From Alphaproteobacteria bacterium (GTDB taxonomy: Bacteria > Pseudomonadota > Alphaproteobacteria > CAAHEQ01 > UBA3637): DNA of 64,000 bases. The position numbers and the translations under genes are program-made. Under the pieces are notes generated by a model. It had not been told where the DNA came from. It saw nothing but the letters and a program-made list of their open reading frames with translations, and searched no databases. Below, piece after piece: positions 5,550-23,595 of this stretch. Every line of letters begins with the position of its first letter. Position 1 is the stretch's first letter. The stretch spans positions 70,837 to 134,836 of the forward strand of contig JAFTTR010000002.1 of the NCBI GenBank assembly GCA_017466695.1, given 5' to 3'.

Positions 5550-6767
5550 CTATTGAAATCTTAATGCATCAATTGGATCCAATTTCATAGCTTTTATTGC
5601 CGGCATTAAACCAGATACAACACCCACAACCACAGCAACTGTTACAGAAATAACAACAGACCAAAGAGATATTGGAACCTGTTTTTCAAAAACAACTCCG
5701 GCTACTTGTGATCCCAGCACACCAACCACCATACCAACAAAACTCCCCATAAATGAAATCATCACAGATTCGGTTAAAAATTGAAGCATAATCCATTTAT
5801 TTGAAGCCCCCAAAGCCTTCCTTGTGCCAATTTCTCTTGTTCTCTCCGTTACAGAAACAAGCATCATATTCATAATCCCAATACTACCCACCAGCAAAGA
5901 AATTGAGGCAATCGACGCTAACAAAACAGACAAAGCAAAACCAACACTCCTAACTTTTTCAACCATATCTGTCATTAGCCTAACTGAAAAGTCATTAGCA
6001 ACCCCATCTTTTAAGTGATGTCTTGCTCTCAGTTGATATTCAATTCGATTAGCAACAGCCTCCATTTTATCTTCACTCACAGTTTTAACAAACGCTACAT
6101 TCGTATATTGTGGCCGAAACCCAGAGTGAATCCGTTGACGAAAAGTCGTTGCAGGCATCATCACAATATTATCTTGGTCATCCCCCATAAGGCCATCCCC
6201 TTTTTCTTTAAGCGTTCCAATAACAGTAAAAGGGCGACTTTTTAAACGAATAACCTTACCAATAGGATCTTGCAGACCGAACAATTCCTCAACAATTGTT
6301 TGTCCAATAACAACATAAGGACGCCCTGTTTTTAAATCTTTTTCACTAAACATAGAACCTTTATCAATTTCCCAATTACCAATTTCAAGATATTCAGGGG
6401 TAGTACCTGCCACACTCACCCCATAGTTGTTGGAACCATAAACAGCTTGTACAGCAAAGTTAACCAGATACGAAGCTGTCTTCACATCTTTTAAATTTTT
6501 TAAAGACTCAACATCATCAAAACTTACACTGGGCCTACCTCTACCACCTCGAACGCCTCCACTAACTGTTTCCCCAGGACCAATAATAATTAAATTTGTA
6601 CCCATAGAGTCAAATGTTTTTGTAATTTCATTTTGCACCGTTTGACCTGCTGCCACCATCATCACAACAGCTGCCACCCCAATTAAAATCCCCAGCATTG
6701 TCAAAAAAGTACGTAATTTGTAGGCACTAATTGAAATCCAAGACTCTTTTAATATCTGGTAAATCAT
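5550..6767 (-). CDS. ABC efflux permease, FtsX/MacB family (periplasmic core domain plus 4 TM)
   Basis: N-terminal TM, large periplasmic domain, C-terminal FtsX-like TM bundle; operon context with ABC ATPase, HlyD and TolC. Confidence 0.8.
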   Translation of the reverse strand: MIYQILKESWISISAYKLRTFLTMLGILIGVAAVVMMVAAGQTVQNEITKTFDSMGTNLIIIGPGETVSGGVRGGRGRPSVSFDDVESLKNLKDVKTASYLVNFAVQAVYGSNNYGVSVAGTTPEYLEIGNWEIDKGSMFSEKDLKTGRPYVVIGQTIVEELFGLQDPIGKVIRLKSRPFTVIGTLKEKGDGLMGDDQDNIVMMPATTFRQRIHSGFRPQYTNVAFVKTVSEDKMEAVANRIEYQLRARHHLKDGVANDFSVRLMTDMVEKVRSVGFALSVLLASIASISLLVGSIGIMNMMLVSVTERTREIGTRKALGASNKWIMLQFLTESVMISFMGSFVGMVVGVLGSQVAGVVFEKQVPISLWSVVISVTVAVVVGVVSGLMPAIKAMKLDPIDALRFQ

Positions 6768-7492
6768 TGTCCCTCCTTATTCAAATAGGCTGAACGAAGA
6801 CCATCATATTCTTTTCGCCCATCGTGAATTTTAATCATACGGTGCGCATAATCTGCCACATCATCCTCATGTGTTACCAAAACAATTGTAATACCTGCCT
6901 GATTGAGTTTTGAAAAAAGCGCCATAATTTCATCAGAAGTTTTGGTATCTAAATTCCCAGTTGGCTCATCTGCAAAAATAATAGCAGGATTGTTCACCAA
7001 AGCTCTTGCAATGGCAACACGTTGTTGCATACCCCCTGAAATTTGAGTTGGAAGTCTATCTTCATACCCTTTCAACCCCACAATTTTAAGCATTTCGACA
7101 GCTCTTTTATACCTTTCCTTTTCACCAACACCCTGATAAATCAAGGGTAAAGAAACATTATCAGCTATTGTTCGTTTCATCAAAAGGTTAAAGTTTTGAA
7201 ATACAAACCCTATTTCATGCCCTCTGATAAAAGCAAGCTCATTGTCCGTTTTTTGAGAAACAAGCTTCCCTGTTAAATAATACGCCCCTTTTGTGGGTCG
7301 ATCCAAACAACCCAAAATATTCATCAAAGTTGACTTACCAGAGCCAGAATGACCCATAATAGCTACAAACTCCCCTTTTTCAATTTTAAAAGAAACATTC
7401 TTGAGAACGGACTGGCTCATTCCACCAGCCATAAAATATGTCTTACATAAATCTTTCACCTCAATAACGGTTTCTTTTTGTTGTTTTGCCAT
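6764..7492 (-). CDS. ABC transporter ATP-binding protein (MacB/LolD-like ATPase)
   Basis: Walker [10 protein letters not shown]; signature [15 protein letters not shown]; Walker [13 protein letters not shown]. Confidence 0.9.
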
Positions 7493-8604
7493 TATTTTCG
7501 CCCACCTTTTTGAATGTATTCTGTAATGAATTGGTCGCCTTCTTTAAGTCCATCAACAACTTCAACATAAGAGGCATCCATAATTCCACGAGTAAAGACA
7601 AGAGGCACCACTTTGCCATCAATCAGTTGGTAGATAACCCCTTGATTAGCCTCTAAATCAAGTGTCACTTTGGGAACATATTTTCTAACCAATGCATTGG
7701 GTTTATATTGCAAAGCAGCCGTAGGAATACGAAGAACGCCTTCTTTATCATGAATAACAATTTGAACAAAAGCTGTCATCCCTGGCAATAACTTACGTGA
7801 AGAATTATCCACCTCAATCACAACCGTATACATCACAACATTTGACTCTTCGGTTGGGGATAATCTAATTTGTTTAACAACCCCGGAAAAAGCATCATTT
7901 GGGTAAGCATCCACCGTGAAAGAAGCTTTCATCCCAGATTGAATTGCTCCAATATCTGCTTCAGCAATACTCGCTTCAATTTGCATTTTGGACAAATCCT
8001 CAGCAATGGTAAATAACGTTGGTGTTTGAAGAGAGGCTGCTACTGTTTGACCTTGTTCCACTTCTTTGGAAATCACCGTTCCTGAAACAGGCGAAGTAAT
8101 TTTAGCATAGCCAAAATTACGTTCAGCCTTATTAAAATCAGCCGTTGCTGTTAAAACATCAGCTTCAGCTATGGCTAAATTAACCTCTGCTTCTTCCAAA
8201 GAGGCTTTGGCAATCAATTTATCTTTATAAAGTTTTTCATATCTTTTAAAGTTTAAATCAGCCACCTTCTTTTTCGCATAAGCTAAATCTAATCTAGCTT
8301 TGGCATCATTTTTATTCTCCGTTAAAACAGCCGTATCCAGCTCAGCTAAAAGTTGCCCTTCTTTGACTTCATCATTATAATCAACCAATACTCTTTCAAC
8401 AATTCCAGAAACTTGCGTTCCCACACTGACCGTATTAACTGGTTGAATTTTACCTGATGCCGTTACCTCTTCAACAATTCGACCCTTTTCAACTTTCATA
8501 ATTTCAAAATCTTGCTTTGTAAGGGCTTTTTCTTTTCCCCCTGAAAAAGCATATATCCCACCCCCAATTAATAGCACAATAATTAAAACGACCCACTTTT
8601 TCAT
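7492..8604 (-). CDS. Periplasmic adaptor (membrane fusion protein), HlyD/MacA family
   Basis: N-terminal anchor, coiled-coil segment, beta-barrel/lipoyl-like regions; overlaps neighbouring genes by 1 nt (operon). Confidence 0.8.
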   Translation of the reverse strand: MKKWVVLIIVLLIGGGIYAFSGGKEKALTKQDFEIMKVEKGRIVEEVTASGKIQPVNTVSVGTQVSGIVERVLVDYNDEVKEGQLLAELDTAVLTENKNDAKARLDLAYAKKKVADLNFKRYEKLYKDKLIAKASLEEAEVNLAIAEADVLTATADFNKAERNFGYAKITSPVSGTVISKEVEQGQTVAASLQTPTLFTIAEDLSKMQIEASIAEADIGAIQSGMKASFTVDAYPNDAFSGVVKQIRLSPTEESNVVMYTVVIEVDNSSRKLLPGMTAFVQIVIHDKEGVLRIPTAALQYKPNALVRKYVPKVTLDLEANQGVIYQLIDGKVVPLVFTRGIMDASYVEVVDGLKEGDQFITEYIQKGGRK

Positions 8605-9947
8605 TAAAACCTCCCTATGGCACGATACAAACTTGCCTTACTTGTTAACACGGCATAATAAGCTACAATAACTTCCTTTCTCGCATTAGATAGCTGTGAA
8701 CCGGCTGTCAATAAATTCAAAATATCCCCTTTACCAACTTGATATGAAGCAAAAGCCACTCGTTCATTTTCAACAGCACTTTCCAGCGCTTTTTTGCTAA
8801 TTTCATAAGAAGAAACAGCCGTTTTATAATTGTGATAAGAAGTCCAAACCTCATTTTTAACCATTTCAATCATTTCTTCTTTTTGTAAAAGAGCTTTTTC
8901 CTTTTGCGCCTCAGCCTCTTTCACATTATATGTTACTGAAAAGCCAGAAAAAAGAGGAACAGAAACATTCAACCCAATACTTGAGGAATAATCAAAATTA
9001 TTCCTTTCTTTAAAATCATCCCCATAACCGGAAGATGCTGTTAAAGAAATGGTTGGCATATGCATTGATTTCAAGGCTTTTACATTTTCAGTAGCTGCTA
9101 AAATATCTTTGTCAGCTTTTTGAATTTCAGGTCTGAGCCCTATCGCTGTTTCAATCATTTTATCAACACTCATCCCTTGCATGGAAAGTTTTGTCAAATC
9201 CCTATCATTTTTAGGTTTTAATAGGTTAAAATCAGTCGTTGGGGAAACATTTAATAAAACAGCTAATTTACCTTGATTTGTTTTAACCTGATTTTCAGCT
9301 TGAACAACATCTAATCTTGATTCTTCATAACTTGTTTTAGCAAGCAATTTATCACTTAAAGAAACAAGACCTAACTCATAACGTCTTGAAGATTCCTCAT
9401 ACGATTTTTTAAAACTTGCTTCACTTGTTTTGGCGCTTTTTAAAACCTCTTGGGCACTGAGTAAATCAAAATAAGCCTTATTAATTTCTAAAAAAGTATC
9501 TTTGATTTGAGCATTGTATTCAAACCCTGAAGATAACATATAATTTTCAGCCCTCTTCACACGAGCAGAACGGCCCCCAAAATCATAGAGCATCCACGAA
9601 AGAGCCGCATTCAAACGATAAGGATTAGCGGCATTCGAATTAAAATCTTCCACCTTATTATATGTATCTTCCATTGCACCTTTTAAAGTAACACTTGGCA
9701 AATACTCTGCTTTAGAGGCACCCAAAGAAGCCTCTTTTGCCTTCACTTCCATATACCCTCTATTTAAAGTCGGATTATTACAAAGCCCAATTTCTAACAA
9801 TTCAGGCAATCCCATAGGGCCTTTTAAAATATCTTTATCCACACAATTTTCTGGTGCTTTTTGTTCAAAAACATGAAAGGGATCCATGGCCTGCGCCACC
9901 CCTGAAAAACAAATTATACCCATACCTAATAAGAAAATTTTGCGCAT
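8604..9947 (-). CDS. Outer membrane efflux protein, TolC family
   Basis: Signal peptide MRKIFLLGMGIICFSGVAQA; two repeated OEP-like halves; first gene of the operon. Confidence 0.8.
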   Translation of the reverse strand: MRKIFLLGMGIICFSGVAQAMDPFHVFEQKAPENCVDKDILKGPMGLPELLEIGLCNNPTLNRGYMEVKAKEASLGASKAEYLPSVTLKGAMEDTYNKVEDFNSNAANPYRLNAALSWMLYDFGGRSARVKRAENYMLSSGFEYNAQIKDTFLEINKAYFDLLSAQEVLKSAKTSEASFKKSYEESSRRYELGLVSLSDKLLAKTSYEESRLDVVQAENQVKTNQGKLAVLLNVSPTTDFNLLKPKNDRDLTKLSMQGMSVDKMIETAIGLRPEIQKADKDILAATENVKALKSMHMPTISLTASSGYGDDFKERNNFDYSSSIGLNVSVPLFSGFSVTYNVKEAEAQKEKALLQKEEMIEMVKNEVWTSYHNYKTAVSSYEISKKALESAVENERVAFASYQVGKGDILNLLTAGSQLSNARKEVIVAYYAVLTSKASLYRAIGRF

Positions 9948-10120
9948 TTTTAACTCCTCACATGAAGGTTAACGAATATCCCCACCTAAATGTTCAAAAA
10001 AACTCTCTCGATAGTAGTACACCTTCCAAATCAAGTCAATATTTTTTTGATTTTTAATAAAAACACTTGTATTTAAAAATAAGTTCCTATAAACTATTAT
10101 TCTTGAAAAGGAGATATGAT

Positions 10121-10507
10121 ATGATTGGTGAAATTACAAAGAAAGTGGAAGCTTTAAATAAACTTAAAGAAACGGCAAATAATCCAAAAATTTTATGGGA
10201 AGAAATGCAAATTGTTGCTGACAAATCTTTTCAACTACAAGAAGATATATTAGCCCTTATTCAGCAAGCTGAAGAAACAGAAAAGAACATTGCTGCACTT
10301 CAATCGCTTTTTGAAACAAGAGAAATGGTTTGGGATATCATTGATGAAATTGCTGCGCTTGAAATAAAATCAAAAGAAAAAGCTCATAAAAAACAATCAA
10401 AATGTGCCTCAAAAAAAAGTTGTCCTGACAAAAAATGTGATTGCCATCATTCCTCTCATGAAGCCCAAGAAGAATGTCATAGCTCCTGTTGCTGCCACAA
10501 ACATTAA
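10121..10507 (+). CDS. Small coiled-coil protein with Cys/His-rich C-terminal tail (putative metal-binding), hypothetical
   Basis: AAGGAG RBS 7 nt upstream of ATG 10121 (the ORF-track start at 10067 is less likely). Tail KCASKKSCPDKKCDCHHSSHEAQEECHSSCCCHKH. Confidence 0.5.
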   Translation: MIGEITKKVEALNKLKETANNPKILWEEMQIVADKSFQLQEDILALIQQAEETEKNIAALQSLFETREMVWDIIDEIAALEIKSKEKAHKKQSKCASKKSCPDKKCDCHHSSHEAQEECHSSCCCHKH

Positions 10508-10522
10508 AGGAGAAGAACTTAT

Positions 10523-10771
10523 ATGACAAATAGTTTAGAAAATCTCTCTTTTGAAGAAGCCATGCAAGAACTAGAACAAGTTGTTCGCCAACTTGAAACA
10601 GGCAAAGTGAAGTTGGAAGATGCTGTATCAGCTTATGAAAAAGGGGTCGCACTTAAAAATATTTGCGAAGAAAAATTAAAAAATGCTAAATCAAAAATTG
10701 ACTTATTGGTAATTGGTGATAACAACACTCCTATTGCAACGGAAGATTTTGATGACAACATTAACAAATAG
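10523..10771 (+). CDS. xseB: Exodeoxyribonuclease VII small subunit
   Basis: LSFEEAMQELEQVVRQLETGKVKLEDAVSAYEKGVAL is typical of XseB; ~80 aa. Confidence 0.85.
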   Translation: MTNSLENLSFEEAMQELEQVVRQLETGKVKLEDAVSAYEKGVALKNICEEKLKNAKSKIDLLVIGDNNTPIATEDFDDNINK

Positions 10772-11642
10772 TTTGAGAAATGTTAGAAGCGAACTAGATA
10801 CTTATTTTAAAAACCATTTTCAAAATGAAATGGGGCTTCCCTCTGAAGTTCTTAAAGCCATGAGTTATTCCTTTATTGGAAAAGGAAAGGCATTAAGACC
10901 TTTTTTGGTTTTAACAGTTGCTGATATTTTAAATTTAGATAAACAATCAGCGTTGCAAATTGCACTTGCCATTGAAATGGTACACACCTACTCTCTTATT
11001 CATGATGATCTACCAGCTATGGATAATGATACCTTGCGAAGAGGGCAACCAACTTGTCATATTCAATTTTCTGAATCCACTGCCATTTTGGCTGGAGATG
11101 CTCTTTTAACACATGCATTTGAGGTTTTAGCTGATGAAAAAACACATCCCAATGCCCTTGTTCGTTGCCAATTAATTGCTTATCTTGCCAAAAGTGCTGG
11201 GGTTGAAGGGATGATTGGAGGGCAAGTCATGGACCTTCAAGGTGAAAAAATCCCCTTGATGGAAAATGAGATTTACAAAATGCAATCTATGAAAACCGGC
11301 GCTTTATTAAAATTTTCTTGCATTGCCCCTGCTATAGCAGCTCAAAAAAATCAAGAAACGATTGAAGCTTTAACCTCTTATGCCAACGCTATTGGTCTTT
11401 TGTTTCAAATAACAGACGATTTATTAGATGAAATAGGCTCAGAACAAGAAGTTGGTAAGACGCTCAAAAAAGACAAAAAAGCTGGTAAATCAACATTTTT
11501 AAATCTCTATGGTATTCAAAAAACAAGAGAACTTGCTCTTGAGATGCATCAAAAAGCCTTACAAGCGTTAAATACGCCTATTTTAAAGGAATGTACTTTA
11601 CTCAAAGAGTTAGCCAACTTCATTTTAACAAGGACCTATTAA
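10752..11642 (+). CDS. ispA: Farnesyl diphosphate synthase (geranyltranstransferase)
   Basis: FARM LIHDDLPAMDNDTLRRG and SARM FQITDDLLD motifs. Start taken at MTTLTN, a 20-nt overlap with xseB. Confidence 0.88.
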   Translation: MTTLTNSLRNVRSELDTYFKNHFQNEMGLPSEVLKAMSYSFIGKGKALRPFLVLTVADILNLDKQSALQIALAIEMVHTYSLIHDDLPAMDNDTLRRGQPTCHIQFSESTAILAGDALLTHAFEVLADEKTHPNALVRCQLIAYLAKSAGVEGMIGGQVMDLQGEKIPLMENEIYKMQSMKTGALLKFSCIAPAIAAQKNQETIEALTSYANAIGLLFQITDDLLDEIGSEQEVGKTLKKDKKAGKSTFLNLYGIQKTRELALEMHQKALQALNTPILKECTLLKELANFILTRTY

Positions 11643-12287
11643 ATGGCATTGATGAAAAAGAATGAACTGAAACTTTTTTTAGACAAACTGTTTGAAGTCT
11701 ATCCCAATCCACGCTGTGAATTAAACTATATCAATCACTTCACTTTACTTGTTGCTATTATTTTATCGGCCCAAAGCACGGATAAAGGGGTTAACAAGGT
11801 AACTGAAAAGCTTTTTCCTGTCGCCTCAACACCTGAAGAGATGCTTTTGCTTGGGGAAGAAAGATTAAAACAATATATCCGTTCGATTAACTACTTTAAT
11901 AATAAGGCAAAATCCATTATTAAATTAGCTCATCAACTCATTGAGAACTTCAATGGGCAAATCCCCACTGATTTTGAAACACTCAAAACTTTAAGTGGTG
12001 TTGGGCAAAAAACAGCTAGTGTTTTTTTAAATGTTGCCTATCATGCTCCCTTTATTGGCGTTGATACCCACGTTTTTCGCCTGTGTCATCGGCTTAATAT
12101 TTGTAAGGGGAAAGATCCAAGCGCTGTTCAAGAAAAATTACAAAAAATCATTCCAGCAAGCTATCAACCAGATGTTGCTTTGGCGCTTGTCTTTCATGGG
12201 AGATATGTTTGCACAGCAAAACGACCAAAATGCGCAACATGCCCTTTAAAGGATGTCTGCACTGCAATTGAAAATAAGGAGATATAA
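11643..12287 (+). CDS. nth: Endonuclease III
   Basis: HhH-GPD LSGVGQKTASV; C-terminal 4Fe-4S loop CTAKRPKCATCPLKDVC. Confidence 0.9.
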   Translation: MALMKKNELKLFLDKLFEVYPNPRCELNYINHFTLLVAIILSAQSTDKGVNKVTEKLFPVASTPEEMLLLGEERLKQYIRSINYFNNKAKSIIKLAHQLIENFNGQIPTDFETLKTLSGVGQKTASVFLNVAYHAPFIGVDTHVFRLCHRLNICKGKDPSAVQEKLQKIIPASYQPDVALALVFHGRYVCTAKRPKCATCPLKDVCTAIENKEI

Positions 12288-13858
12288 TGCGTTTATCTAT
12301 CTTTTTAACACTCATCAGTATAAGTCTTCTTTCAAATCACAGTTTTGCAACAAATATTGAAACGTTGTTTAACTTGAAAGACCCAAACTATTATAAAGAG
12401 ACAGTTTCAAAAACATATACAAACACCCCTATTATTAAAATTGAAGGACCTGCTCCTATTGTTGAAGGGGAAAAAGACATTGAACGCCCCACACTTAAAC
12501 CCTCAAGCATTGATGAACTTAAGGCTTTAACGCCTCAAATTAATCAAACATATACCCTTAAAACTCCTTTTGGACAAAATACAACAGCTGACAATTTAGA
12601 ACACACGACTGATTTTAACGTACAAATTCAAATTATTGACAATAAAACGGTTTCTGTTCAAGAATATATTCAGTTCATCTCCCACCAGAAAAAGAAACTT
12701 TCAAGACACATTCCCTTACAACTTCAAAAAGGCTTAGCCCCTTTAAACATTGAAATGAATACTTTTGAAAAAAATGGTAAAAAAGTCAGTTATGACATTC
12801 AAAAAAGCAATGATGAATTTGTCATTACCAGCACAAAAGAATATCCTGCCGGCGTTCATATGATTCATTTAAACTATATTGCTCATAATGCTATTCAAGA
12901 ACAAAATGGCATGACTCAACTTTTTTTAAGCTTAACAGGAAAACACTGGCCATATCCTGTCAATAGATTTAAAGCTATTGTTCTTTATCCATATATACCA
13001 GTCTCTTATCAAAAAAATTTGCTTGCAGGCACAAACAACATCAATCTTACACAAGGAGTTGACATTGTAACAGATATTAAGGGAAATTCAATTTATACCC
13101 TAAAACAAATTTTACCAGCTTTTGGTGATGTAAGAATTTTTGAAACCTTTGATGGGAAAAACTTACCCCAAAATTTCAGCGAGTTATTCTTTCAAAAATA
13201 TAAAAAATTGTTCTTTTCTTTATTCTCGTGTTTAGCTATTTTCTTATATCTTGGACTTTCAACACTTTATATAAAAAAAATAGAAAAAAGACATGAAAAT
13301 GTTTTAAAACGTGTAAATCGCCTCTCATTTACAACATTATTGTTATTACAGAAGAAAAAAATCAAAAAAGATGTTGTTTCTACATTAATCAAAATAAAAA
13401 AAATAACAAAGAAATCTTCTTTTATTCTTAAAGCACTTGCTTTTTTAATGAAAACAAAAATAACACAATCTATCACAAAAAGAGTTCTTAAATTCTTAAC
13501 TCTTTTTGTGGCCTTATTTAAACATTTATTTGTTGTAAGTGTTATTTTAGGAGTTACCACATTCCCTTTCATTCAAAAGGCCGGAGGATCAGATATTGTC
13601 TTTTTAATACCTCTTTTCTTTGCTATCATAGCTGTGAAGTTTTTTTATCAAAAAGTTCTTATTCCTGAACTTAAAAATGATTTGAAACTTTTTAAAGAAA
13701 AATTACTCAGTCCTCATATTTGTTTTGGACTAAAAGACAGCACAATTTTAGCTTTTTATTTAAGATATTTACAAACAGCCTATTTACTTAATATTGATGA
13801 TAAGTTAGCATCTATTATCACCACTCAAAATCCTGATATTCAATTACCTTCTATTTAA
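12287..13858 (+). CDS. Hypothetical secreted/membrane protein: signal peptide, ~300-aa extracytoplasmic domain, C-terminal multi-TM region with Lys-rich loops (DUF2207-like architecture)
   Basis: Signal peptide MRLSIFLTLISISLLSNHSFA; C-terminal hydrophobic segments (FFSLFSCLAIFLYLGL; LTLFVALFKHLFVVSVILGV; IVFLIPLFFAIIAV). AAGGAG RBS; ATG overlaps the nth stop. No catalytic motif recognised. Confidence 0.5.
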   Translation: MRLSIFLTLISISLLSNHSFATNIETLFNLKDPNYYKETVSKTYTNTPIIKIEGPAPIVEGEKDIERPTLKPSSIDELKALTPQINQTYTLKTPFGQNTTADNLEHTTDFNVQIQIIDNKTVSVQEYIQFISHQKKKLSRHIPLQLQKGLAPLNIEMNTFEKNGKKVSYDIQKSNDEFVITSTKEYPAGVHMIHLNYIAHNAIQEQNGMTQLFLSLTGKHWPYPVNRFKAIVLYPYIPVSYQKNLLAGTNNINLTQGVDIVTDIKGNSIYTLKQILPAFGDVRIFETFDGKNLPQNFSELFFQKYKKLFFSLFSCLAIFLYLGLSTLYIKKIEKRHENVLKRVNRLSFTTLLLLQKKKIKKDVVSTLIKIKKITKKSSFILKALAFLMKTKITQSITKRVLKFLTLFVALFKHLFVVSVILGVTTFPFIQKAGGSDIVFLIPLFFAIIAVKFFYQKVLIPELKNDLKLFKEKLLSPHICFGLKDSTILAFYLRYLQTAYLLNIDDKLASIITTQNPDIQLPSI

Positions 13859-15710: not shown

Positions 15711-18599
15711 ATGCAACAAGTTAACGTGTCGCATCTAAGAGAAGTTGACTTAGAAAATGATAAGACAAAAAGCATTTGTCTTGTTGATGGCTCTGGATAC
15801 ATTTTTAGAGCATTCTATGCCCTACCCCTTATGACACGAGAAGACGGTACACCAGTAAATGCTGTTTACGGTTTTATGAATATGTTGATGAACCTAGTAA
15901 GCGAAAATGGGTGTTCTCATATTTTGGTTGTTTTTGATGCTAAGCGTAAAAATTATCGAAATGATATTTATAAAGCTTATAAAGAAAATAGAAAAGAAAC
16001 CCCACCAGAACTTGTACCTCAGTTTCCCCTTATTCGAGAAGCTAGTGACGTTTTAAACATTCCATGGATTGAAATGGAAGGGTTTGAAGCTGATGACTTA
16101 ATTGCGTCCTATGCAAAAATTGCAACTGAAAAAGGATGGCATACCACAGTTGTTTCTGCCGATAAAGACTTGATGCAATTAATGAATGATCATGTTTCTC
16201 TTTATGATCCAATGAAAAAAAAGATCATCACAAATGAAGATGTCATTAACAAATTTGGTGTTTTGCCAGACAAAGTAACAGATGTTCAATCATTAATGGG
16301 CGATAGTACCGATAATATTCCAGGAGCCACTGGCATTGGTCCCAAAACAGCGGCCAGTTTAATCAATGAATTCGGCTCACTTGATACATTACTGAATAAT
16401 TTATCCCAAGTAAAAAATGAAAAAAGGCGCGCAATTTTAGAAAGAGATAAAGAGCAAATTCTCATTTCTCAAAAACTTGTCACTTTGTGTGACACAGCAC
16501 CTGTGAACGAGGATTTATCTTTGTATAGAGCTAAAGCACCCGATATTGAAAAGATGAAGCAATTTTTGGTTCAAAATCGCTTTAAAAGTTTGTTAGCAAA
16601 AGTTTCTTCTTGGTCAGATGACAGAGTTAAAAATATTCATCTTTTAAATGAAAGCCCTTCCATTTCTTCAAGCGAAAACCTTGTTAAAGATAAGGTTGAA
16701 TCTATTCCAGTACAGCCCATTGAAAAGAAAGCTATTCTATTTTCTCCCAGAAAATATGAGCTTATTCAAGAAGTAAAAGATCTCGAGCGTTGGATTGAAA
16801 AATTAAAAACCGCCTCTGAGTTCGCCATTGATACGGAAACCACCTCTTTAAATATTTTGGAGGCAAAGCTGGTGGGTATTTCTCTTGCTGTTGATGATAA
16901 AGCTTGTTATATTCCTGTGCGCCATGGTGGGGAGGAAGAGGAAAATACGGTTGATTTATTCTCTTTTACCTCAGTTGAAAAAAAAGAAAGAGAAAAACAA
17001 ATTCCTTTAAAAGTTGTTTTAAAAGAACTCCTCCCTTTGTTAAAAGATAAAAACATTAAAAAGATTGGGCATAATTTAAAATATGACCTTCACATTTTGG
17101 CAAAAGAAATTGGACCAGCGTTTGATATTATCTCTTATGAAGACACAATGGTTTTGAGTTATGTTTTAAATGGTGTTACCCATGGACATGGAATGGACGA
17201 GCTGTCCACGCTTTATTTAAACCATACAACAATTAAATATGAAGAGGTTTGTGGTTCGGGAAAAGAAAAAATAACCTTTGATCAAGTACCACTTGAAAAA
17301 GCTTTACTCTATGCAGCTGAAGATGCAGATATTACCTTGGAATTGTATCACCATTTCAAAGAAAAGCTCACAGATGAAAGTCTTAAAAACATCTATTATC
17401 ATATTGACTTACCTTTGGTTAAAATCTTATTTAGGATGGAAGAAAAAGGCATTCAAATTGACACCTTGCAGTTAAATAATTTGAAGCATTATTTCACACA
17501 AGAACTTGCCAACTTAACTCAAAAAATTTATGACCTTGCTGGTGAAGAATTCAACATCAATTCACCTATGCAACTGGGGCAAATCTTGTTTGAAAAAATG
17601 GGTCTTCCTGGTGGAAAGAAAGGCACAAAAGGTGGATTTAGTACAGATGTCAAAGTGTTAGAGGCTTTGGCTAGCGAAGGACATGAGATTGCAAAAACAG
17701 CTTTAGAATATCGCTCATTTGCTAAGCTTAAAAGCACATATGTAGATGCTTTACTCACTTTAACAGATAAAGAAAATCGAGTTCACACTTCTTATATGCA
17801 AACTGTAACAAGCACTGGACGCCTTTCTTCAACAGACCCTAATTTGCAAAATATCCCCATTAAAACAGAGGCAGGAAAAGAAATTAGAAAAGCCTTTGTT
17901 GCCAAAAAGGGATATAAGATTATGGCCGCCGACTATTCTCAAATTGAATTAAGATTAATGGCTGACGTTGCTAATATTAAAAATTTAAAAACTTCTTTTA
18001 TGAATAATGAAGATATTCACGCAAGAACAGCCTCTCAAATTTTCAATGTACCACTAGAAGAAGTCTCAAAAGATTTAAGACGTAACGCTAAAGCGATTAA
18101 CTTTGGGATTATTTATGGAATGAGCGCCTTCGGCCTTTCGGCTCAATTAGGTATTTCAAGACAAGAGGCTAGTAATTATATCAATGCTTATTTCAAAGAA
18201 TATCCTGAAATTAAAACGTATATGGAAGAAACCACTCAATTTGCAACCACAAATGGGTACGTCCTCACACCAATGGGACGCAGATGTTACATCCGAGGGA
18301 TTATGGACCCTAAAATGCGTGGGATTGCTTCACGAGCAGCCATCAATGCTCCCATCCAAGGTGGTGCTGCAGATATCATCAAAATTGCCATGCAAAAAGT
18401 AGTTGACCGATTGGCAAAAGAAGATGTGGATGCTTCTTTATTACTCCAAGTTCATGATGAATTGGTGTTAGAAGTCAAAGAGAGTGATACCCAAAAAGTT
18501 GCTGAACTTTTAAAAGAAACAATGGAAAATGCTGTTACTCTTTCTGTGCCACTTATTGTTGAAGTTGACACAGCCGATAATTGGAAAGATGCTCATTAA
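15711..18599 (+). CDS. polA: DNA polymerase I
   Basis: 5'-3' exo N-terminus (LVDGSGYIFRAFYA), 3'-5' exo and pol domains (RRNAKAINFGIIYG; QVHDELVLE). Start taken at MQQVN, with a GGGGAG RBS (the ORF-track start is 5 codons upstream). Confidence 0.92.
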   Translation: MQQVNVSHLREVDLENDKTKSICLVDGSGYIFRAFYALPLMTREDGTPVNAVYGFMNMLMNLVSENGCSHILVVFDAKRKNYRNDIYKAYKENRKETPPELVPQFPLIREASDVLNIPWIEMEGFEADDLIASYAKIATEKGWHTTVVSADKDLMQLMNDHVSLYDPMKKKIITNEDVINKFGVLPDKVTDVQSLMGDSTDNIPGATGIGPKTAASLINEFGSLDTLLNNLSQVKNEKRRAILERDKEQILISQKLVTLCDTAPVNEDLSLYRAKAPDIEKMKQFLVQNRFKSLLAKVSSWSDDRVKNIHLLNESPSISSSENLVKDKVESIPVQPIEKKAILFSPRKYELIQEVKDLERWIEKLKTASEFAIDTETTSLNILEAKLVGISLAVDDKACYIPVRHGGEEEENTVDLFSFTSVEKKEREKQIPLKVVLKELLPLLKDKNIKKIGHNLKYDLHILAKEIGPAFDIISYEDTMVLSYVLNGVTHGHGMDELSTLYLNHTTIKYEEVCGSGKEKITFDQVPLEKALLYAAEDADITLELYHHFKEKLTDESLKNIYYHIDLPLVKILFRMEEKGIQIDTLQLNNLKHYFTQELANLTQKIYDLAGEEFNINSPMQLGQILFEKMGLPGGKKGTKGGFSTDVKVLEALASEGHEIAKTALEYRSFAKLKSTYVDALLTLTDKENRVHTSYMQTVTSTGRLSSTDPNLQNIPIKTEAGKEIRKAFVAKKGYKIMAADYSQIELRLMADVANIKNLKTSFMNNEDIHARTASQIFNVPLEEVSKDLRRNAKAINFGIIYGMSAFGLSAQLGISRQEASNYINAYFKEYPEIKTYMEETTQFATTNGYVLTPMGRRCYIRGIMDPKMRGIASRAAINAPIQGGAADIIKIAMQKVVDRLAKEDVDASLLLQVHDELVLEVKESDTQKVAELLKETMENAVTLSVPLIVEVDTADNWKDAH

Positions 18600-18742
18600 C
18601 AAATAAAAACTCTTTATTCTCTTTTTTTTACTATAAAGAGAAAGATAATGGCTAACCAGCTGGTTTCTGATTACAAAAAAAAGCAACATAATTTCAATGT
18701 TGCTTTTTTATGATAATGCTAAAAGTATGAGCAAATTGTTAT

Positions 18743-19444: not shown

Positions 19445-19592
19445 AAGAAACCCCCAATTGGATGTGTTAATATTCGTTTATTTTTGAATATATTATAACA
19501 AATTTTAATAAAAAGCAATATTTTTTCATTTTTTTTAATATTTTTTATTGACATTTATATTTTTTGAGGCTATAAGTATTTTATCAACGATG

Positions 19593-19667
19593 GCGGAATA
19601 GCTCAGATGGTAGAGCGGTGGAATCATAATCCATGTGTCGGGGGTTCGATCCCCTCTTCCGCTACCA
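19593..19667 (+). tRNA. tRNA-Met (anticodon CAU; elongator-type; could alternatively be tRNA-Ile2/lysidine)
   Basis: GGCGGAAUAGCUCAGAUGGUAGAGCGGUGGAAUCAUAAUCCAUGUGUCGGGGGUUCGAUCCCCUCUUCCGCUACCA; anticodon loop AUCAUAA; no initiator signature (no GGG/CCC anticodon stem). Confidence 0.88.
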
Positions 19668-19670
19668 GTT

Positions 19671-19704
19671 AAAAGACCTTGTAGAAATGCAAGGTCTTTT
19701 TTTT
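19671..19704 (+). terminator. Rho-independent terminator after tRNA-Met
   Basis: aagaccttg-tagaaatg-caaggtctt hairpin followed by tttttttt. Confidence 0.75.
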
Positions 19705-19715
19705 ATGCATATGAG

Positions 19716-20114
19716 AATAACCATAGAGGTAGAGGGTGGCATCATAATTCCAAGTGCCCAAGGGTTCTAACCCCTCTTGTGCTACCAGTTAGAAAGGGCC
19801 TCGTAGAAATACGAGGTCTTTTTTTTGCTTTTATCCCGTATCAAAGGACAAAATAGCTATAGAGGTAGAGCGGTGGAATCTCAATTCCACCATCTTTTCA
19901 ACTTCGGCTCACCGCCTTGTTTCAAAGTGGTTCATTGCTTTACGCAGAAAAACAGTTCCCCAAACTGTTTTTCTTTACGCAGTCAAGTGCCCAAGGATTC
20001 TAACCCCTCTTGTGCTACCAGTTAGAAAGGGCCTTGTAGAAATACGAGGTCTTTTTTTTATATGTAAGAGAACACCTATAGAGATAGAGGGTAAAATCAT
20101 AATTCCATGTTGAT
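19716..20114 (+). repeat. Array of degenerate or partial tRNA-Met copies with associated hairpin terminators. Components: a near-full-length pseudo-tRNA at 19724-19787 plus terminator at 19792-19827; a 5' fragment at 19858-19890; a ~90-bp insert at 19891-19981; a 3' fragment at 19982-20020 plus terminator at 20025-20059; a 5' fragment at 20077-20114.
   Basis: Direct reading: atagaggtagag(c/g)g(g)tgg(c/a)atc(a/t)(t/c)aattcca... and ...agtgcccaag(g/a)(g/a)ttctaacccctcttgtgctaccagttagaaagggcc(t/c)(c/t)gtagaaatacgaggtcttttttt recur with mutations. The D-arm and T-arm are disrupted, so these are non-functional copies. Confidence 0.8.
19724..19787 (+). pseudogene. tRNA-Met pseudogene (degenerate copy; CAU anticodon loop retained, D- and T-arms mutated)
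   Basis: atagaggtagagggtggcatcataattccaagtgcccaagggttctaacccctcttgtgctacca compared with the intact tRNA at 19593-19667. Confidence 0.7.
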
Positions 20115-20131: not shown

Positions 20132-21001
20132 CTATCTTTCTAATTTTAAATGATAATAAGGAGAATTTTTAAGCAAAGGACGAATATGCGTGTTGAATAG
20201 CACTTTTTCTTCCACAGATAAAAACAAAATTTCACTTTCCTTTGCCTCGTCATTATTTTTAATCACTCCATTGCCTTTTAATGTTTTCATAAAATGAAAC
20301 CAAACAGGCTGCGAATGGATATTATTTTTCATTTTTTTATTAAAAACAACATATTCAAAATATTTTTTTTGTTGAAAATGAGAGAAATTTTTTCTTTGAA
20401 TAGCGTAACTATCCCCATTCTCACCGTTAAATGGTCCTAATTTATATTTCACAAGAACACCATTATGTGAAAATGTGTTGTATCCCTTTAAAGAAAAATG
20501 CTTATTATCATTTTCCGCTTTTTTCATCATCTCGACAAATTCTTTTAACCTATTTGTTAAATAAACCTGATCAGCATCAATTTTCACAACCCATTCGTTT
20601 GGTTTAAAAAATTGCAATCCAAATTGATTATACGCTGCTAATGTATTCTCATAAGGAACAGATCCTTTATATCTCTTATCATGAGAAGGAATAACAGCAT
20701 GAGGATATTCATGAATTTCACAACTGGGCCTTTTTTCACACCACGCATTCATAAAAGCAACAGAGCCATCATCTTTTTCATTTGAATGAATAATAACAAT
20801 CCTATCAAAAACGCCGTCAATTGAATTTAAACAGGCCTCAATGGTGTTTATTTCATTCTTAACACGTAAATAGGCTGATGCAGGAAATGCTTCTGTTCCC
20901 TGCGCATTTATAGAGTTAAAAAATATATAAATTACAACAAATAATAACAACTTCTTAAAGTTTTGCTTTAACACAAAATACCCCCACACTTTTTTAGACA
21001 A
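20132..21001 (-). CDS. Putative glycosyltransferase (GT-A-like, DxD motif) with N-terminal membrane anchor/signal
   Basis: Hydrophobic N-terminus LLLFVVIYIFFNSINAQG; beta-strand-like RIVIIHSNEKDDGS followed by VVKIDADQVY (DxD). Very AT-rich; lies directly next to the tRNA-Met pseudo-copy array. Confidence 0.45.
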   Translation of the reverse strand: MSKKVWGYFVLKQNFKKLLLFVVIYIFFNSINAQGTEAFPASAYLRVKNEINTIEACLNSIDGVFDRIVIIHSNEKDDGSVAFMNAWCEKRPSCEIHEYPHAVIPSHDKRYKGSVPYENTLAAYNQFGLQFFKPNEWVVKIDADQVYLTNRLKEFVEMMKKAENDNKHFSLKGYNTFSHNGVLVKYKLGPFNGENGDSYAIQRKNFSHFQQKKYFEYVVFNKKMKNNIHSQPVWFHFMKTLKGNGVIKNNDEAKESEILFLSVEEKVLFNTHIRPLLKNSPYYHLKLER

Positions 21002-21021: not shown

Positions 21022-21714
21022 TTATGCCGTATATAACCCCTCTTTAATCAACCCCTCTTCGACACGAATTTGCTTATCCATCTGCAATGCTAAATCAGGG
21101 TTATGTGTTGCAATCAATGCCGATAATTTTGTTTCTTTCACTAAATTTAAAAGCGTTTGAAACACACCACTTGCCGTACTAGGGTCCAAATTTCCAGTTG
21201 GCTCATCTGCTAATAAAATAGCTGGGTTGTTTGCCAATGCTCTTGCAATGGCAACACGTTGTTGCTCACCCCCTGAAAGTTGCCCTGAGCGATGTTTTAA
21301 TCGGTGTTTTAATCCCACTAACTCCAGCAATTCTTCAGCTCTTTTTCTAGCAAGTTTTGGCTTTTTCCCTTCAATTAGTTGGGGAAGCATCACATTTTCA
21401 AGCGCATTAAAATCTGGCAATAACAAATGGGATTGATAAACAAAACCAATGGCCTTTCGTCTCAAAAGAGTGCGTTCTTTATCTAAGGCATGAGATACAT
21501 CAACGCCATTTACAAAAATTTCACCACCCGTAGGCGTATCCAACAGCCCTGCAATATGAAGGAGTGTTGATTTTCCAGAACCAGAAGGACCAACAAGAGC
21601 CACAATTTCCCCTTTTTGAAGTGTAAAGTTAATATCTTTTAAAACCTCAAGTTTCGTTTCTTTATCGCCATAAAAACGGCTCACATGTTTTAATTCTAAA
21701 CAAGGATTATTCAT
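21022..21714 (-). CDS. lolD: Lipoprotein-releasing system ATP-binding protein
   Basis: [18 protein letters not shown]; [32 protein letters not shown]; paired and overlapping with the LolC/E permease gene. Confidence 0.85.
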
Positions 21715-22951
21715 ATCTTAATGCCTCCACAGGGTCAGTTTTGCTTGCTTTATAAGAAGGATAAAGTGTTGCAAGTAAGGATAAAGCTAAACTCATCACA
21801 ACAACAAGTGTCACTTCTGTCATATCCACTTTTGCTGGTAGGTGGGAAAGGAAATAAATTTCAGCCGAAAAAAGCTCTCTTCCTGATAATCCTTCTAAAA
21901 ACGTTTTTATCGCATCAATATTTTCACAAAACAACAAACCAAGAGCAAAACCTGCGAATGTTCCAACAACACCAACGGTTAATCCAGACATTAAGAAAAT
22001 CCGTTGAATAGCACCACGGCTCATCCCCATTGTACGTAAAACTGCAATATCTTTTGTCTTATCTTGCACAAGCATAATCAGCCCTGAAATCATATTAAAA
22101 GCAGCCACAATAATAATGAGCGTTAAAATTAAAAACATAACATTTCGCTCAACTTCAATGGCATTAAAAAAGGCTTGATTTGTATATCTCCAATCATGGA
22201 TTGTAGCATCTCTTCCAATTTTTGAAAATGCATTTTCTGCAATTTTTTCATAATCGGCGCCTTTGTTTGTAAATACTTCAAGATGAGAAACTTTATCCCC
22301 TGTCATGAAGAATTTTTTCGCCTCGTCAAGGGGCATGAAAAGAAAATTGCCGTCATATTCACTCATACCACTATCAAAAGTTCCTAAAACCGTATATGCC
22401 TTCATTTTAGGAATTGTGCCAAATGCTGTTATATTTCCTTTAGGTGAAACCAATGATACTTGATCTCCAGCTCTTACCCCTAACCTTCTGGCCAAACGAT
22501 AACCTAAAATAATTTGGCTATCTAAAAACTCATTGATATCTATGCCTTTATATTTTCCACCTAATAAAGGCCTTTTTTTAAAATCCTCAAGACTCATCCC
22601 TCTAACCATAACCCCAGCTGAGGCCATATCAGAGGAAAGCATAACCTGCCCATCCACCACAGGTACAACATGGGTAATATCTTTAATGGATTGCATTGTT
22701 TTAGCCTTTTCTTCGCCATCAGACAAATATGGACCATAAGAGGGATAAACTCCTAATTGCCCATTAATACCAAGAACACGACTTAAAAGCTCTTCTTTAA
22801 ACCCATTCATCACACTCATTACAATAATAAGCGTTGCAACACCTAACATAATCCCTAAAAATGAAAACCCTGCAATAACAGAGACAAAGCCGGTTCTTTT
22901 TCTAGACTTTAAGTAGCGAAAAGATAACATTCTTTCTGTTTTTGAAAACAT
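21707..22951 (-). CDS. lolC: Lipoprotein-releasing system permease LolC/LolE (FtsX family)
   Basis: 414 aa; N-terminal TM, periplasmic domain, C-terminal FtsX TM bundle; upstream of lolD with an 8-nt overlap. Confidence 0.8.
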   Translation of the reverse strand: MFSKTERMLSFRYLKSRKRTGFVSVIAGFSFLGIMLGVATLIIVMSVMNGFKEELLSRVLGINGQLGVYPSYGPYLSDGEEKAKTMQSIKDITHVVPVVDGQVMLSSDMASAGVMVRGMSLEDFKKRPLLGGKYKGIDINEFLDSQIILGYRLARRLGVRAGDQVSLVSPKGNITAFGTIPKMKAYTVLGTFDSGMSEYDGNFLFMPLDEAKKFFMTGDKVSHLEVFTNKGADYEKIAENAFSKIGRDATIHDWRYTNQAFFNAIEVERNVMFLILTLIIIVAAFNMISGLIMLVQDKTKDIAVLRTMGMSRGAIQRIFLMSGLTVGVVGTFAGFALGLLFCENIDAIKTFLEGLSGRELFSAEIYFLSHLPAKVDMTEVTLVVVMSLALSLLATLYPSYKASKTDPVEALRYE

Positions 22952-23019: not shown

Positions 23020-23595
23020 TTAATCTCTTAAATGTGTTCTCAAATCTGTATACAAACGTAACACTTTATTTTCTGGAACATGGGACACCCTCTTTTGTGG
23101 AGTACAACTTTCAATCAAAAAACGCCATGTATTAATCTTTAAATCTGCTAACAAATAATCTAAACGTTCCTTCATCATCCCCCCTTCTCTTATAATATAT
23201 CCCCTTAACATGTCACTTTGTGTATCAGATAGATATTTTTTAATCTGCTCATCACTCGCATAAGGATAAGGTCGATTTAAGATTTTTTTTTGCTTTTGAG
23301 GAAAATATTCTTGCCATTCGATTGGAAAATCAACATGTCGGTATTCTTTTAAAAAATCAGTCAGTGTACGTGTCAGAAAATAATGCAACCTTAAAACTTC
23401 AGGTTTTTGCGCAAAAACAGAGGGCCTTAAAGCTCCTTCAGCACGGGCCGGATATGCGTATAAAAATGTCATTTTAACATTATAGACACGCTTATCTTTA
23501 CAAACCATATCGAATAAAAAAGGCAATTTAAGTTGATAATATTCAACTTTATGTATTCGTTTTGGCACACCGACCTCCTTTAGGATATATATCAC
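23020..23595 (-). CDS. Hypothetical protein (191 aa)
   Basis: No motif recognised; basic, AT-rich; divergent from the transglutaminase-like gene. Confidence 0.4.
   Translation of the reverse strand: MIYILKEVGVPKRIHKVEYYQLKLPFLFDMVCKDKRVYNVKMTFLYAYPARAEGALRPSVFAQKPEVLRLHYFLTRTLTDFLKEYRHVDFPIEWQEYFPQKQKKILNRPYPYASDEQIKKYLSDTQSDMLRGYIIREGGMMKERLDYLLADLKINTWRFLIESCTPQKRVSHVPENKVLRLYTDLRTHLRD

Follow-up and report, generated by a model that had tools for sequence, protein, structure and literature searches.

A CgtA-like GT-A glycosyltransferase gene next to lolCD as a candidate strain-variable envelope-glycan determinant in an uncultured gut alphaproteobacterium

The glycosyltransferase genes acting on the lipooligosaccharide (LOS) of Campylobacter jejuni vary between strains and are switched off by frameshifts. 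CgtA of this species is a beta-1,4-N-acetylgalactosaminyltransferase of the LOS outer core, assigned to PF06306 in Pfam and to family GT82 in CAZy, a prokaryote-only, inverting GT-A family reported to lack the usual xED catalytic Asp (Taujale et al., PMC7185993). Here we describe a gene of the same Pfam family, hereafter GT, encoded in a 64,000-nucleotide stretch of an alphaproteobacterial contig (JAFTTR010000002.1, positions 70,837 to 134,836; the window), where it occupies positions 20132-20974 of the minus strand and lies next to lolC and lolD. We propose, with a probability of about one half, that GT encodes a strain-variable, exported glycosyltransferase of envelope glycans and is the last gene of a lolC-lolD-GT unit. 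Its product is like CgtA in Pfam family, GT-A fold and DxD motif, and both organisms are host-associated. It differs from CgtA in being shorter (280 aa versus about 347), in aligning with it only in the N-terminal, donor-side region, and in not being encoded within an LOS gene cluster; in addition, the Campylobacter and Helicobacter members of the family are devoid of the Sec-like leader and of the cysteine pair found in GT.

Several other systems are instructive for comparison. As far as general knowledge of these loci goes, Neisseria lgt, Haemophilus lic2/lex2 and the C. jejuni LOS classes have in common with GT mosaic alleles, a variable copy number and frameshifted "off" alleles, but GT is a single gene beside lolCD and not part of a glycosyltransferase cluster. 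The GT2-type enzymes SunS, SpsA, TarP and WrtF share with it the beta1 strand, the "DDGS" motif and the layout of the DxD motif, although at sequence identities of 10-18% and template modelling (TM) scores of 0.4-0.5. A further comparison is offered by type II glycosyltransferases of the eukaryotic Golgi, among them B4GALNT1 (GM2 synthase). Regarding location, nucleotide-sugar-dependent glycosyltransferases of bacteria are expected to act in the cytoplasm, and periplasmic glycosylation is normally performed by GT-C enzymes with lipid-linked donors. The LOS alpha-2,3-sialyltransferase of Neisseria, Lst, has a GT52 rather than a GT-A fold. Lst is reported to have an outer-membrane location, and N. 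gonorrhoeae to sialylate its LOS with CMP-NANA (cytidine monophosphate-N-acetylneuraminic acid) taken from the host (PMC4324315, which refers to Shell et al. 2002). Lst is a precedent for a nucleotide-sugar-dependent transferase outside the cytoplasm, but the analogy with GT, whose own location is predicted, concerns location only: the two belong to unrelated families, and no likeness between them in sequence or structure was found here.

The GT protein is almost certainly a GT-A glycosyltransferase. In the following, residue numbers refer to the 289-aa open reading frame (ORF), except where the 280-aa protein is named. PF06306 matched the protein at 48.8 bits, well above its gathering score of 21 (E=8.9e-13), a match that spans only positions 89-248 of the 347 of the profile, and a precomputed match to the same family is present in all close homologues. 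The GT2 models of Pfam remained just under threshold (21.9 versus 23.3 bits), NCBIfam returned only a sub-threshold match to TuaG, and a sequence search of the PDB only a non-significant match to GmaR. The AlphaFold2 model built from the alignment has a predicted local distance difference test score (pLDDT) of 93.9 and a predicted TM-score (pTM) of 0.86, and consists of a helix at residues 4-32 followed by an alpha/beta domain in which structure comparison recognised the Rossmann-like alpha/beta/alpha sandwich of GT-A enzymes. Foldseek found 112 matches in the PDB at E<=1e-3; the matches listed, 50 out of 50, are GT-A transferases and include SunS/ThuS, heparosan synthase, SpsA, WrtF, K4CP and TarS/TarP, with TM-scores of 0.4-0.5. 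Around 100 residues, mainly those of the beta-rich C-terminal part, fall outside the Foldseek-aligned core, and no close solved structure was found. A preliminary description of this stretch, made from its letters alone, had proposed a GT-A fold with a DxD motif; both are borne out by Pfam, in which PF06306 scores above its cut-off, by the AlphaFold2 model and by the Foldseek comparison.

The motifs quoted in that description were recovered: residues 67-80 read RIVIIHSNEKDDGS, and VVKIDADQVY contains D142-A-D144. An alignment of 54 homologues revealed that R46, K48, E50, S60, D142, D144, Q145, Y147, L152 and H236 are invariant; at least 90% of the aligned sequences also retain D197 and D78 (of "DDGS"), the latter corresponding to the upstream Asp that serves the nucleotide in GT-A enzymes. 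D142-A-D144 (20570-20578, minus strand) is the invariant DxD motif, assigned to metal and diphosphate binding. His236 of the WFHF motif (20294-20296, minus strand) is a candidate third metal ligand by analogy with other GT-A enzymes, and D197, in a "GDS" motif, could act as the catalytic base. A Campylobacter homologue compared by BLASTP shares 36% identity with GT (E=7e-18) over residues 34-156 of the 280-aa protein only; the C-terminal halves of the two proteins do not align, and no full-length similarity to CgtA was observed. A profile search of 1.84 billion representatives recovered 1330 clusters at E<=1e-3. On these comparisons we place the protein in a CgtA-like superfamily, at a distance from CgtA at which donor and acceptor specificity cannot be deduced.

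In the ORF listing the frame runs from 20132 to 21001 on the minus strand and encodes 289 aa from a TTG at 21001. The GTG at 20974, which gives a protein of 280 aa, is most likely the true start, because the homologues in the 54-sequence alignment begin with M-L-K-x-x-F at the position of Val10 of the window protein, because two relatives, L011 and L018, have an ATG where the window has the GTG, and because a Shine-Dalgarno-like GGGGG run, read from the sequence, lies 6 nt upstream (20981-20985, minus strand). "GG" codons matching this run are kept upstream of the GT start in relatives. Here and below, L-numbers designate homologue loci in other assemblies and P-numbers homologous proteins. 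The coding region also contains an A8 run (T8 on the plus strand) at 20360-20372, in the codons of QQKKYF.

From the GTG, the protein starts with a putative Sec-type leader, MLKQNFKK-LLLFVVIYIFF-NSINA/QG (20903-20974, minus strand; the slash marks the presumed cleavage site), composed of a basic n-region, a hydrophobic core of 11-16 residues and a small-residue c-region. Leaders and cleavage sites were read manually, by rule and by eye. N-termini of this layout also occur in the window's OEP/TolC-like, transglutaminase-like, DUF2207 and 371-aa proteins, and small-residue sites of AXA type can be seen by eye in many leader-bearing homologues (VWS/AD, AFA/LE, QASA/TE, VFA/ST). The N-terminal hydrophobic segment noted in the preliminary description is real: it is hydrophobic, it is modelled as the helix at residues 4-32, it is predicted to be oriented N-in because basic residues precede its hydrophobic core, and it is, for the wider family, an unusual feature.

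The leader goes together with two cysteines, Cys88 (20738-20740) and Cys94 (20720-20722), whose codons lie within 20720-20740 of the minus strand and which form a candidate disulfide pair across the alpha2-beta3 loop. In the first search, 72 of 107 homologues possessed the leader, Cys88 and Cys94. The pair is missing from the leaderless proteins P0036, P0042, P0051 and P0052 and from the Helicobacter type, whose short N-termini are verified or plausible; P0052 is truly leaderless, since a stop codon lies directly upstream of its start. In members of the Campylobacter/Rickettsiales type, a K/R-rich stretch comes after a short hydrophobic patch, an arrangement in keeping with an anchor at the cytoplasmic face; these members carry Cys88 but Phe94. 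Among the 150 best-scoring of the 1330 cluster representatives, clustered at 50% identity, the pair was absent in 106 leaderless proteins and present in 10 full-length leader-bearing proteins, two leader fragments and two fragments without an N-terminus. The leader-bearing subfamily (10 of these best 150) occurs mainly in uncultured gut Alphaproteobacteria. Leaderless members have C/I/V/A at position 88 and F/Y/I at position 94, which fits two side chains in contact.

In a neighbour-joining tree of the catalytic domain, a leaderless clade is sister to the leader clade, and P0036, P0042, P0051 and P0052 are nested within the latter, with approximate bootstrap values of 78-91 of 100 (approximate because the Kimura distance was NaN for a few very distant pairs). 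Leader and cysteine pair thus appear to arise together and to vanish together, and the natural reading of this pattern is export to an oxidising compartment, in which Cys88 and Cys94 would form a disulfide. On balance, we favour an extracytoplasmic location of the catalytic domain. The leaderless homologues without the cysteine pair that are nested in the leader clade include those of L014, a metagenome-assembled genome (MAG) labelled Candidatus Gastranaerophilaceae, and L006 (GCA_045638605.1); L014 may represent a gene transfer across phyla accompanied by loss of the leader, or a mis-binned contig.

The sequence of GT varies in a way that its neighbours do not follow. Its identity to the window protein stays flat at 58-66% across relatives, whatever the divergence of the flanks; in the same relatives a 191-aa neighbour falls from 87% to 44% identity and lolC stays at 87-95%. 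Two metagenome contigs of the Joint Genome Institute (JGI), L089 and L090, represent a near-identical strain: the end of lolD and the hydrolase gene on the far side of GT are 99.5 and 99.1% identical in nucleotides between the window and L089, with a synonymous divergence (dS) of 0.02-0.04. Between the same two sequences GT is 86% identical, with a dS of 0.40, a nonsynonymous divergence (dN) of 0.106 and a dN/dS of 0.26. In a 100-bp sliding comparison, identity to L089 is 99-100% from 21238 to 20639, apart from a single fall to 87% across the leader, drops to 70-83% over a 400-bp block from 20638 to 20239 in the C-terminal half, returns to 94% from 20238 to 20139 and reaches 98-100% over about 700 bp beyond the array of partial tRNA-Met copies described below. 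The block delimits a hypervariable, recombining segment in the acceptor-side half of the gene (20239-20638, minus strand; approximately residues 122-255). Positive selection was rejected as the cause of the divergence, as synonymous divergence is 10-20 times that of the flanks; the raised dS argues for recombination rather than for simple positive selection.

The same conclusion is suggested by protein alignments. The first 122 residues of P0002 are those of the window allele and its C-terminal half is different, P0003 differs from the window allele only in mid-protein (approximately residues 124-225), and parts of both resemble P0004. Judged from these alignments, the GT alleles are intragenic mosaics produced by recombination. 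In GT-A enzymes, nucleotide binding falls to the N-terminal half, and the shape of the acceptor site is set by the C-terminal half, so that exchange of the C-terminal half between strains would exchange acceptor specificity. A patchy identity to L089 was also observed in polA (17300-18600), where 100-bp blocks at 86%, 91% and 94% are interspersed among others at 97-99% and dS is 0.215; recombination mosaicism is hence not confined to GT.

Gain, decay and loss of copies add to this variability. L002 and L008 have two tandem GT paralogues: identity between "a" type copies of different species is 60-68%, and the "b" type shares 54-65% identity with the "a" copies. No open frame could be obtained for the GT copy of L012. 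In L089 and L090, a 1-nt deletion at the GGGGAGGG stretch after the leader, outside the A8 run, introduces a stop codon that cuts the leader off from the catalytic domain, which we interpret as an "off" allele recovered in two independent assemblies. The closest species representative, L028 (95% and 98% amino acid identity for lolC and the hydrolase, respectively), retains only a frameshifted N-terminal remnant of GT; in this locus (5990-6320), the last residues of the stump are Cys94-Gln-Ile, immediately followed by sequence resembling the 3' end of tRNA-Met (ttggtagctaaagaggggtt), suggesting that recombination of tRNA-derived repeats deletes into GT. The window copy itself is under purifying selection, as its dN/dS against orthologues is 0.17-0.33, weaker than that acting on its neighbours (0.04-0.14). 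An identical protein was seen on four contigs, and a 376-kb metagenome contig of the European Nucleotide Archive encodes a protein identical over the 285 residues of its gene call.

In contrast to its content, the position of the locus is conserved. Directly upstream of GT on the minus strand lie lolD, an ATP-binding cassette (ABC) ATPase gene (21022-21714; Pfam ABC_tran), a gene for a lolC/E-type permease (21707-22951; MacB_PCD and FtsX) and the gene of the 191-aa protein, without a Pfam match (23020-23595). GT starts 47 nt past the lolD stop (24-61 nt in relatives), and no terminator-like site was predicted between the two genes; from this arrangement, GT is probably co-transcribed as the last gene of lolC-lolD-GT. 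The earlier view that GT has no operon partners does not agree with the common strand, this short gap free of a predicted terminator, and the adjacency to lolD in all syntenic relatives. The order transglutaminase-like gene, 191-aa protein gene, lolC, lolD, GT, tRNA-Met and hydrolase gene was found in L002/L007, L003/L009, L008, L011 and L018, and the order lolC-lolD-GT-(tRNA-Met fragments)-tRNA-Met-hydrolase is kept in at least seven related species-level MAGs. In L004/L010 (GCA_937906925.1) the gene order is the same, with no tRNA-Met and 128 bp between GT and the hydrolase gene, and by this comparison tRNA-Met and its array were lost or moved in that lineage. With regard to presence across relatives, then, copy number and remnants vary but the place after lolD does not. 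The relatives are animal-gut MAGs labelled Alphaproteobacteria; they were found by a contig scan using the alignment, whereas a scan with the single GT protein found none. The window also encodes GcrA.

The nearest export genes in the window, a MacB/HlyD/OEP-type tripartite set, are about 10 kb from GT. Elsewhere, the leader-bearing homologue of L086 lies directly after an ABC exporter with an MsbA-type domain layout, that of L025 before mlaEFD, that of L019 beside an outer membrane protein (OMP) beta-barrel gene, that of L087 beside A2M/PbpC and that of L088 beside MBOAT and AlgX. A fixed functional partner gene was considered and rejected, as the neighbours of leader-bearing homologues vary by genome. 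The Akkermansia homologues are leaderless. At closer range, the copy in L086 overlaps the end of the ABC exporter gene by 1 nt (8334-10846), and the copy in L025 stands directly upstream of mlaE-mlaF-mlaD (5917-9482). L086 and L025 both lie on CAYJES010000004.1, and the genome concerned, labelled "Lactobacillales" yet encoding Mla, YhdP and outer-membrane-type genes, thus carries two leader-bearing copies about 11 kb apart.

On its other side, GT converges with an intact tRNA-Met (CAT) gene on the plus strand (19592-19667; ARAGORN; Rfam RF00005, 63.1 bits), which is followed by an array of partial tRNA-Met copies (19668-20110, plus strand) that includes 3'-end copies at 19762-19794 and 19995-20027 and a 5'-part copy at 19852-19885. 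The coordinates agree with the preliminary placement of GT between lolD and this array. None of the array copies scores as a tRNA with ARAGORN or Rfam; Rfam recognised only the intact tRNA, a match to BTnc231 being far under threshold. A terminator-like hairpin begins just downstream of the intact tRNA and of each 3'-end copy, at 19671, 19791 and 20024. The 3'-end motif has only two copies in the 64 kb, 19763-19787 and 19996-20020, which lie to the tRNA side of GT, and since no tRNA-like repeat exists on the lolD side, GT lies outside the repeat-bounded segments and is not bracketed by att-like repeats. Comparable arrays, located between GT and the intact tRNA, are present in all syntenic loci that keep tRNA-Met; such arrays were seen at L002, L003, L008, L009, L011, L012, L018 and L028. 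The number of array units differs by a 240-bp indel between the near-identical strains of the window and L089.

The base composition of GT was compared with that of the 46 ORFs of at least 150 aa in the window. Its G+C content (30.0% versus a mean of 36.9%) is the second lowest of the set (z = -2.5), while its G+C at third codon positions (GC3) is 24.5% versus a mean of 28.5% (z = -1.0), the deficit being located in codon positions 1 and 2. Orthologues are likewise low in G+C at second positions (0.24-0.29), and their GC3 mostly tracks that of their neighbours (0.32 in L003, where GC3 is higher), with a value below the neighbours in L002. As GC3 is normal and the deficit lies at positions 1 and 2, the AT-richness reflects the composition of the protein family and provides no evidence of foreign DNA. 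The lowest G+C in the window belongs to the ORF of a DUF2207 membrane protein (12287-13858, plus strand; G+C 29.1%, GC3 21.2%). Searches with GT against PHROG and plasmid sequences found no relatives, a phage search gave one weak match at 25% identity, and no integrase or other mobile-element gene was detected among the neighbourhood ORFs.

These observations bear directly on the preliminary proposal that GT is recent cargo of a tRNA-Met genomic island, foreign in composition and without functional link to its neighbours, which we now consider very improbable, being already contradicted by synteny and GC3. GT does adjoin an array of 3'-end copies of tRNA-Met such as integrases leave behind, its G+C content is low and the content of the locus varies between relatives, but its GC3 is within one standard deviation of the window mean and orthologue GC3 follows the neighbours in most relatives, the lolD side is free of tRNA-like repeats, and neither a mobile gene nor a phage or plasmid relative beyond the 25% match was met. 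Moreover, neither here nor in the relatives does GT lie between the tRNA and the distal 3'-end repeat, and the order lolD-GT-tRNA-hydrolase recurs in at least seven related species-level genomes. The extreme AT content noted earlier stands for total G+C and disappears at third codon positions, so that the argument for a foreign origin fails; of the horizontal acquisition, the island is given up, and what is retained is the exchange of alleles by homologous recombination together with the gain, loss and inactivation of copies. Because truncated (L028) and frameshifted (L089/L090) copies exist in relatives, GT of the window could also be a decaying, non-functional remnant at a deletion-prone locus, but its frame is intact over 280 codons, it keeps all invariant residues of the family, and its dN/dS and the four contigs with an identical protein make this the least probable of the alternatives. 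Hardly more credible is a secreted, toxin- or effector-like enzyme acting on glycans or proteins of the host or of neighbouring cells. Toxins with a GT-A domain that draw on UDP-sugars of the host form a known group, and a Sec-type leader in host-associated gut bacteria would suit such a role; against it, the mature protein of about 256 aa would consist of the catalytic domain alone, lacking any module for translocation or receptor binding, no likeness to toxin glycosyltransferases was seen in Pfam or among the top structural matches listed, no dedicated secretion-system genes are found nearby, and the genomic neighbours are envelope-biogenesis genes.

The alternative that deserves most attention is a conventional LOS, lipopolysaccharide (LPS) or capsule glycosyltransferase working at the cytoplasmic face, the N-terminal helix being an uncleaved, interfacial or re-entrant tether at the inner leaflet; it would leave the variable locus and the mosaic acceptor half unchanged. 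The donors of Leloir glycosyltransferases, nucleotide sugars, are cytoplasmic, and GT conserves all the donor-binding residues of a Leloir GT-A enzyme. Relatives without a leader in Helicobacter, Akkermansia and the sister clade are evidently cytoplasmic, and the hydrophobic patch and K/R stretch of the Campylobacter/Rickettsiales type indicate that the family uses N-terminal tethers. On the other hand, basic residues before the hydrophobic core predict an N-in orientation, many members have a core of 11-16 residues, which would make a short transmembrane segment, many homologues show small-residue c-regions by eye, the leader resembles the leaders of genuinely exported proteins of this genome, and the Cys88/Cys94 pair is confined to leader-bearing members. 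No donor for a DxD-type enzyme is known from the bacterial periplasm, GT keeps all its nucleotide- and metal-binding residues, and for this reason the cytoplasmic tether retains substantial weight as an appreciable, if lesser, possibility. The proposal of an exported envelope-glycan glycosyltransferase has to accommodate this missing donor and further adverse points: characterised CgtA is only remotely similar (36% identity to a Campylobacter homologue across about 120 residues, and profile positions 89-248 of 347), no other glycan-synthesis gene was seen among the 31 window ORFs scanned, the association of leader and cysteine pair rests on about two evolutionary transitions, leader cleavage and the disulfide are predictions, and co-transcription with lolCD is deduced from spacing. 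A literature search for periplasmic GT-A enzymes yielded nothing of direct relevance.

Modification of surface or envelope glycans, already suggested in the preliminary description, is the best reading of the role of GT, and a part in the diversification of envelope glycans is fairly probable. In the mechanism that we propose, GT would be a functional metal-dependent GT-A enzyme of the CgtA-like superfamily, transcribed as the final gene of the lolC-lolD-GT unit. The Sec-type leader would most likely bring its catalytic domain to the periplasmic face of the inner membrane or farther out, where the Cys88-Cys94 disulfide would stabilise it, and the enzyme would transfer a sugar from a diphosphate-activated donor to an envelope glycoconjugate, which may be the LOS/LPS core, a glycolipid or an envelope protein. 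The donor-binding N-terminal half would be kept nearly constant and the acceptor-side C-terminal half swapped between strains by homologous recombination; with copies duplicated, truncated or frameshifted, GT would behave as a strain-variable determinant of surface glycans. Of this picture, the fold, the motifs, the synteny, the mosaicism and the coupling of leader and cysteine pair are observed here, and the acceptor class, the donor, leader cleavage, the disulfide and co-transcription are deduced.

A bolder form of this proposal, which we advance tentatively and regard as rather unlikely in full, is that in the leader subfamily a Leloir-type GT-A domain has left the cytoplasm and glycosylates envelope molecules after export. 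Leader and disulfide would then have been gained together and lost together in one nested lineage, and the recombining C-terminal half would set the strain-specific surface glycans. Such an enzyme would need an unusual source of donor, for instance scavenged host nucleotide sugars, as with gonococcal Lst, or undecaprenyl-diphosphate-linked sugars, and it would fit the repeated placement of leader-bearing genes beside lolCD, an ABC exporter with an MsbA-type domain layout and mlaEFD.

From its sequence relationships, GT is best described as belonging to a CgtA-like subfamily that has gained an export-type leader and a matching cysteine pair. The present comparisons suggest export of this Leloir-type GT-A enzyme, a location that would be unusual. 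If true, an exported GT-A family with a matching disulfide would challenge the division of labour between cytoplasm and periplasm and raise the question of the source of the donor, and the interest of the family would rise considerably if the export of an active Leloir GT-A enzyme were shown. The locus also illustrates that low G+C content alone is a poor sign of foreign origin in an AT-rich genome. Taken as a whole, it is a small, clear case of the diversification of a surface determinant in an uncultured gut lineage, at a fixed site beside essential genes, with a constant donor half, a swapped acceptor half and segregating "off" alleles.

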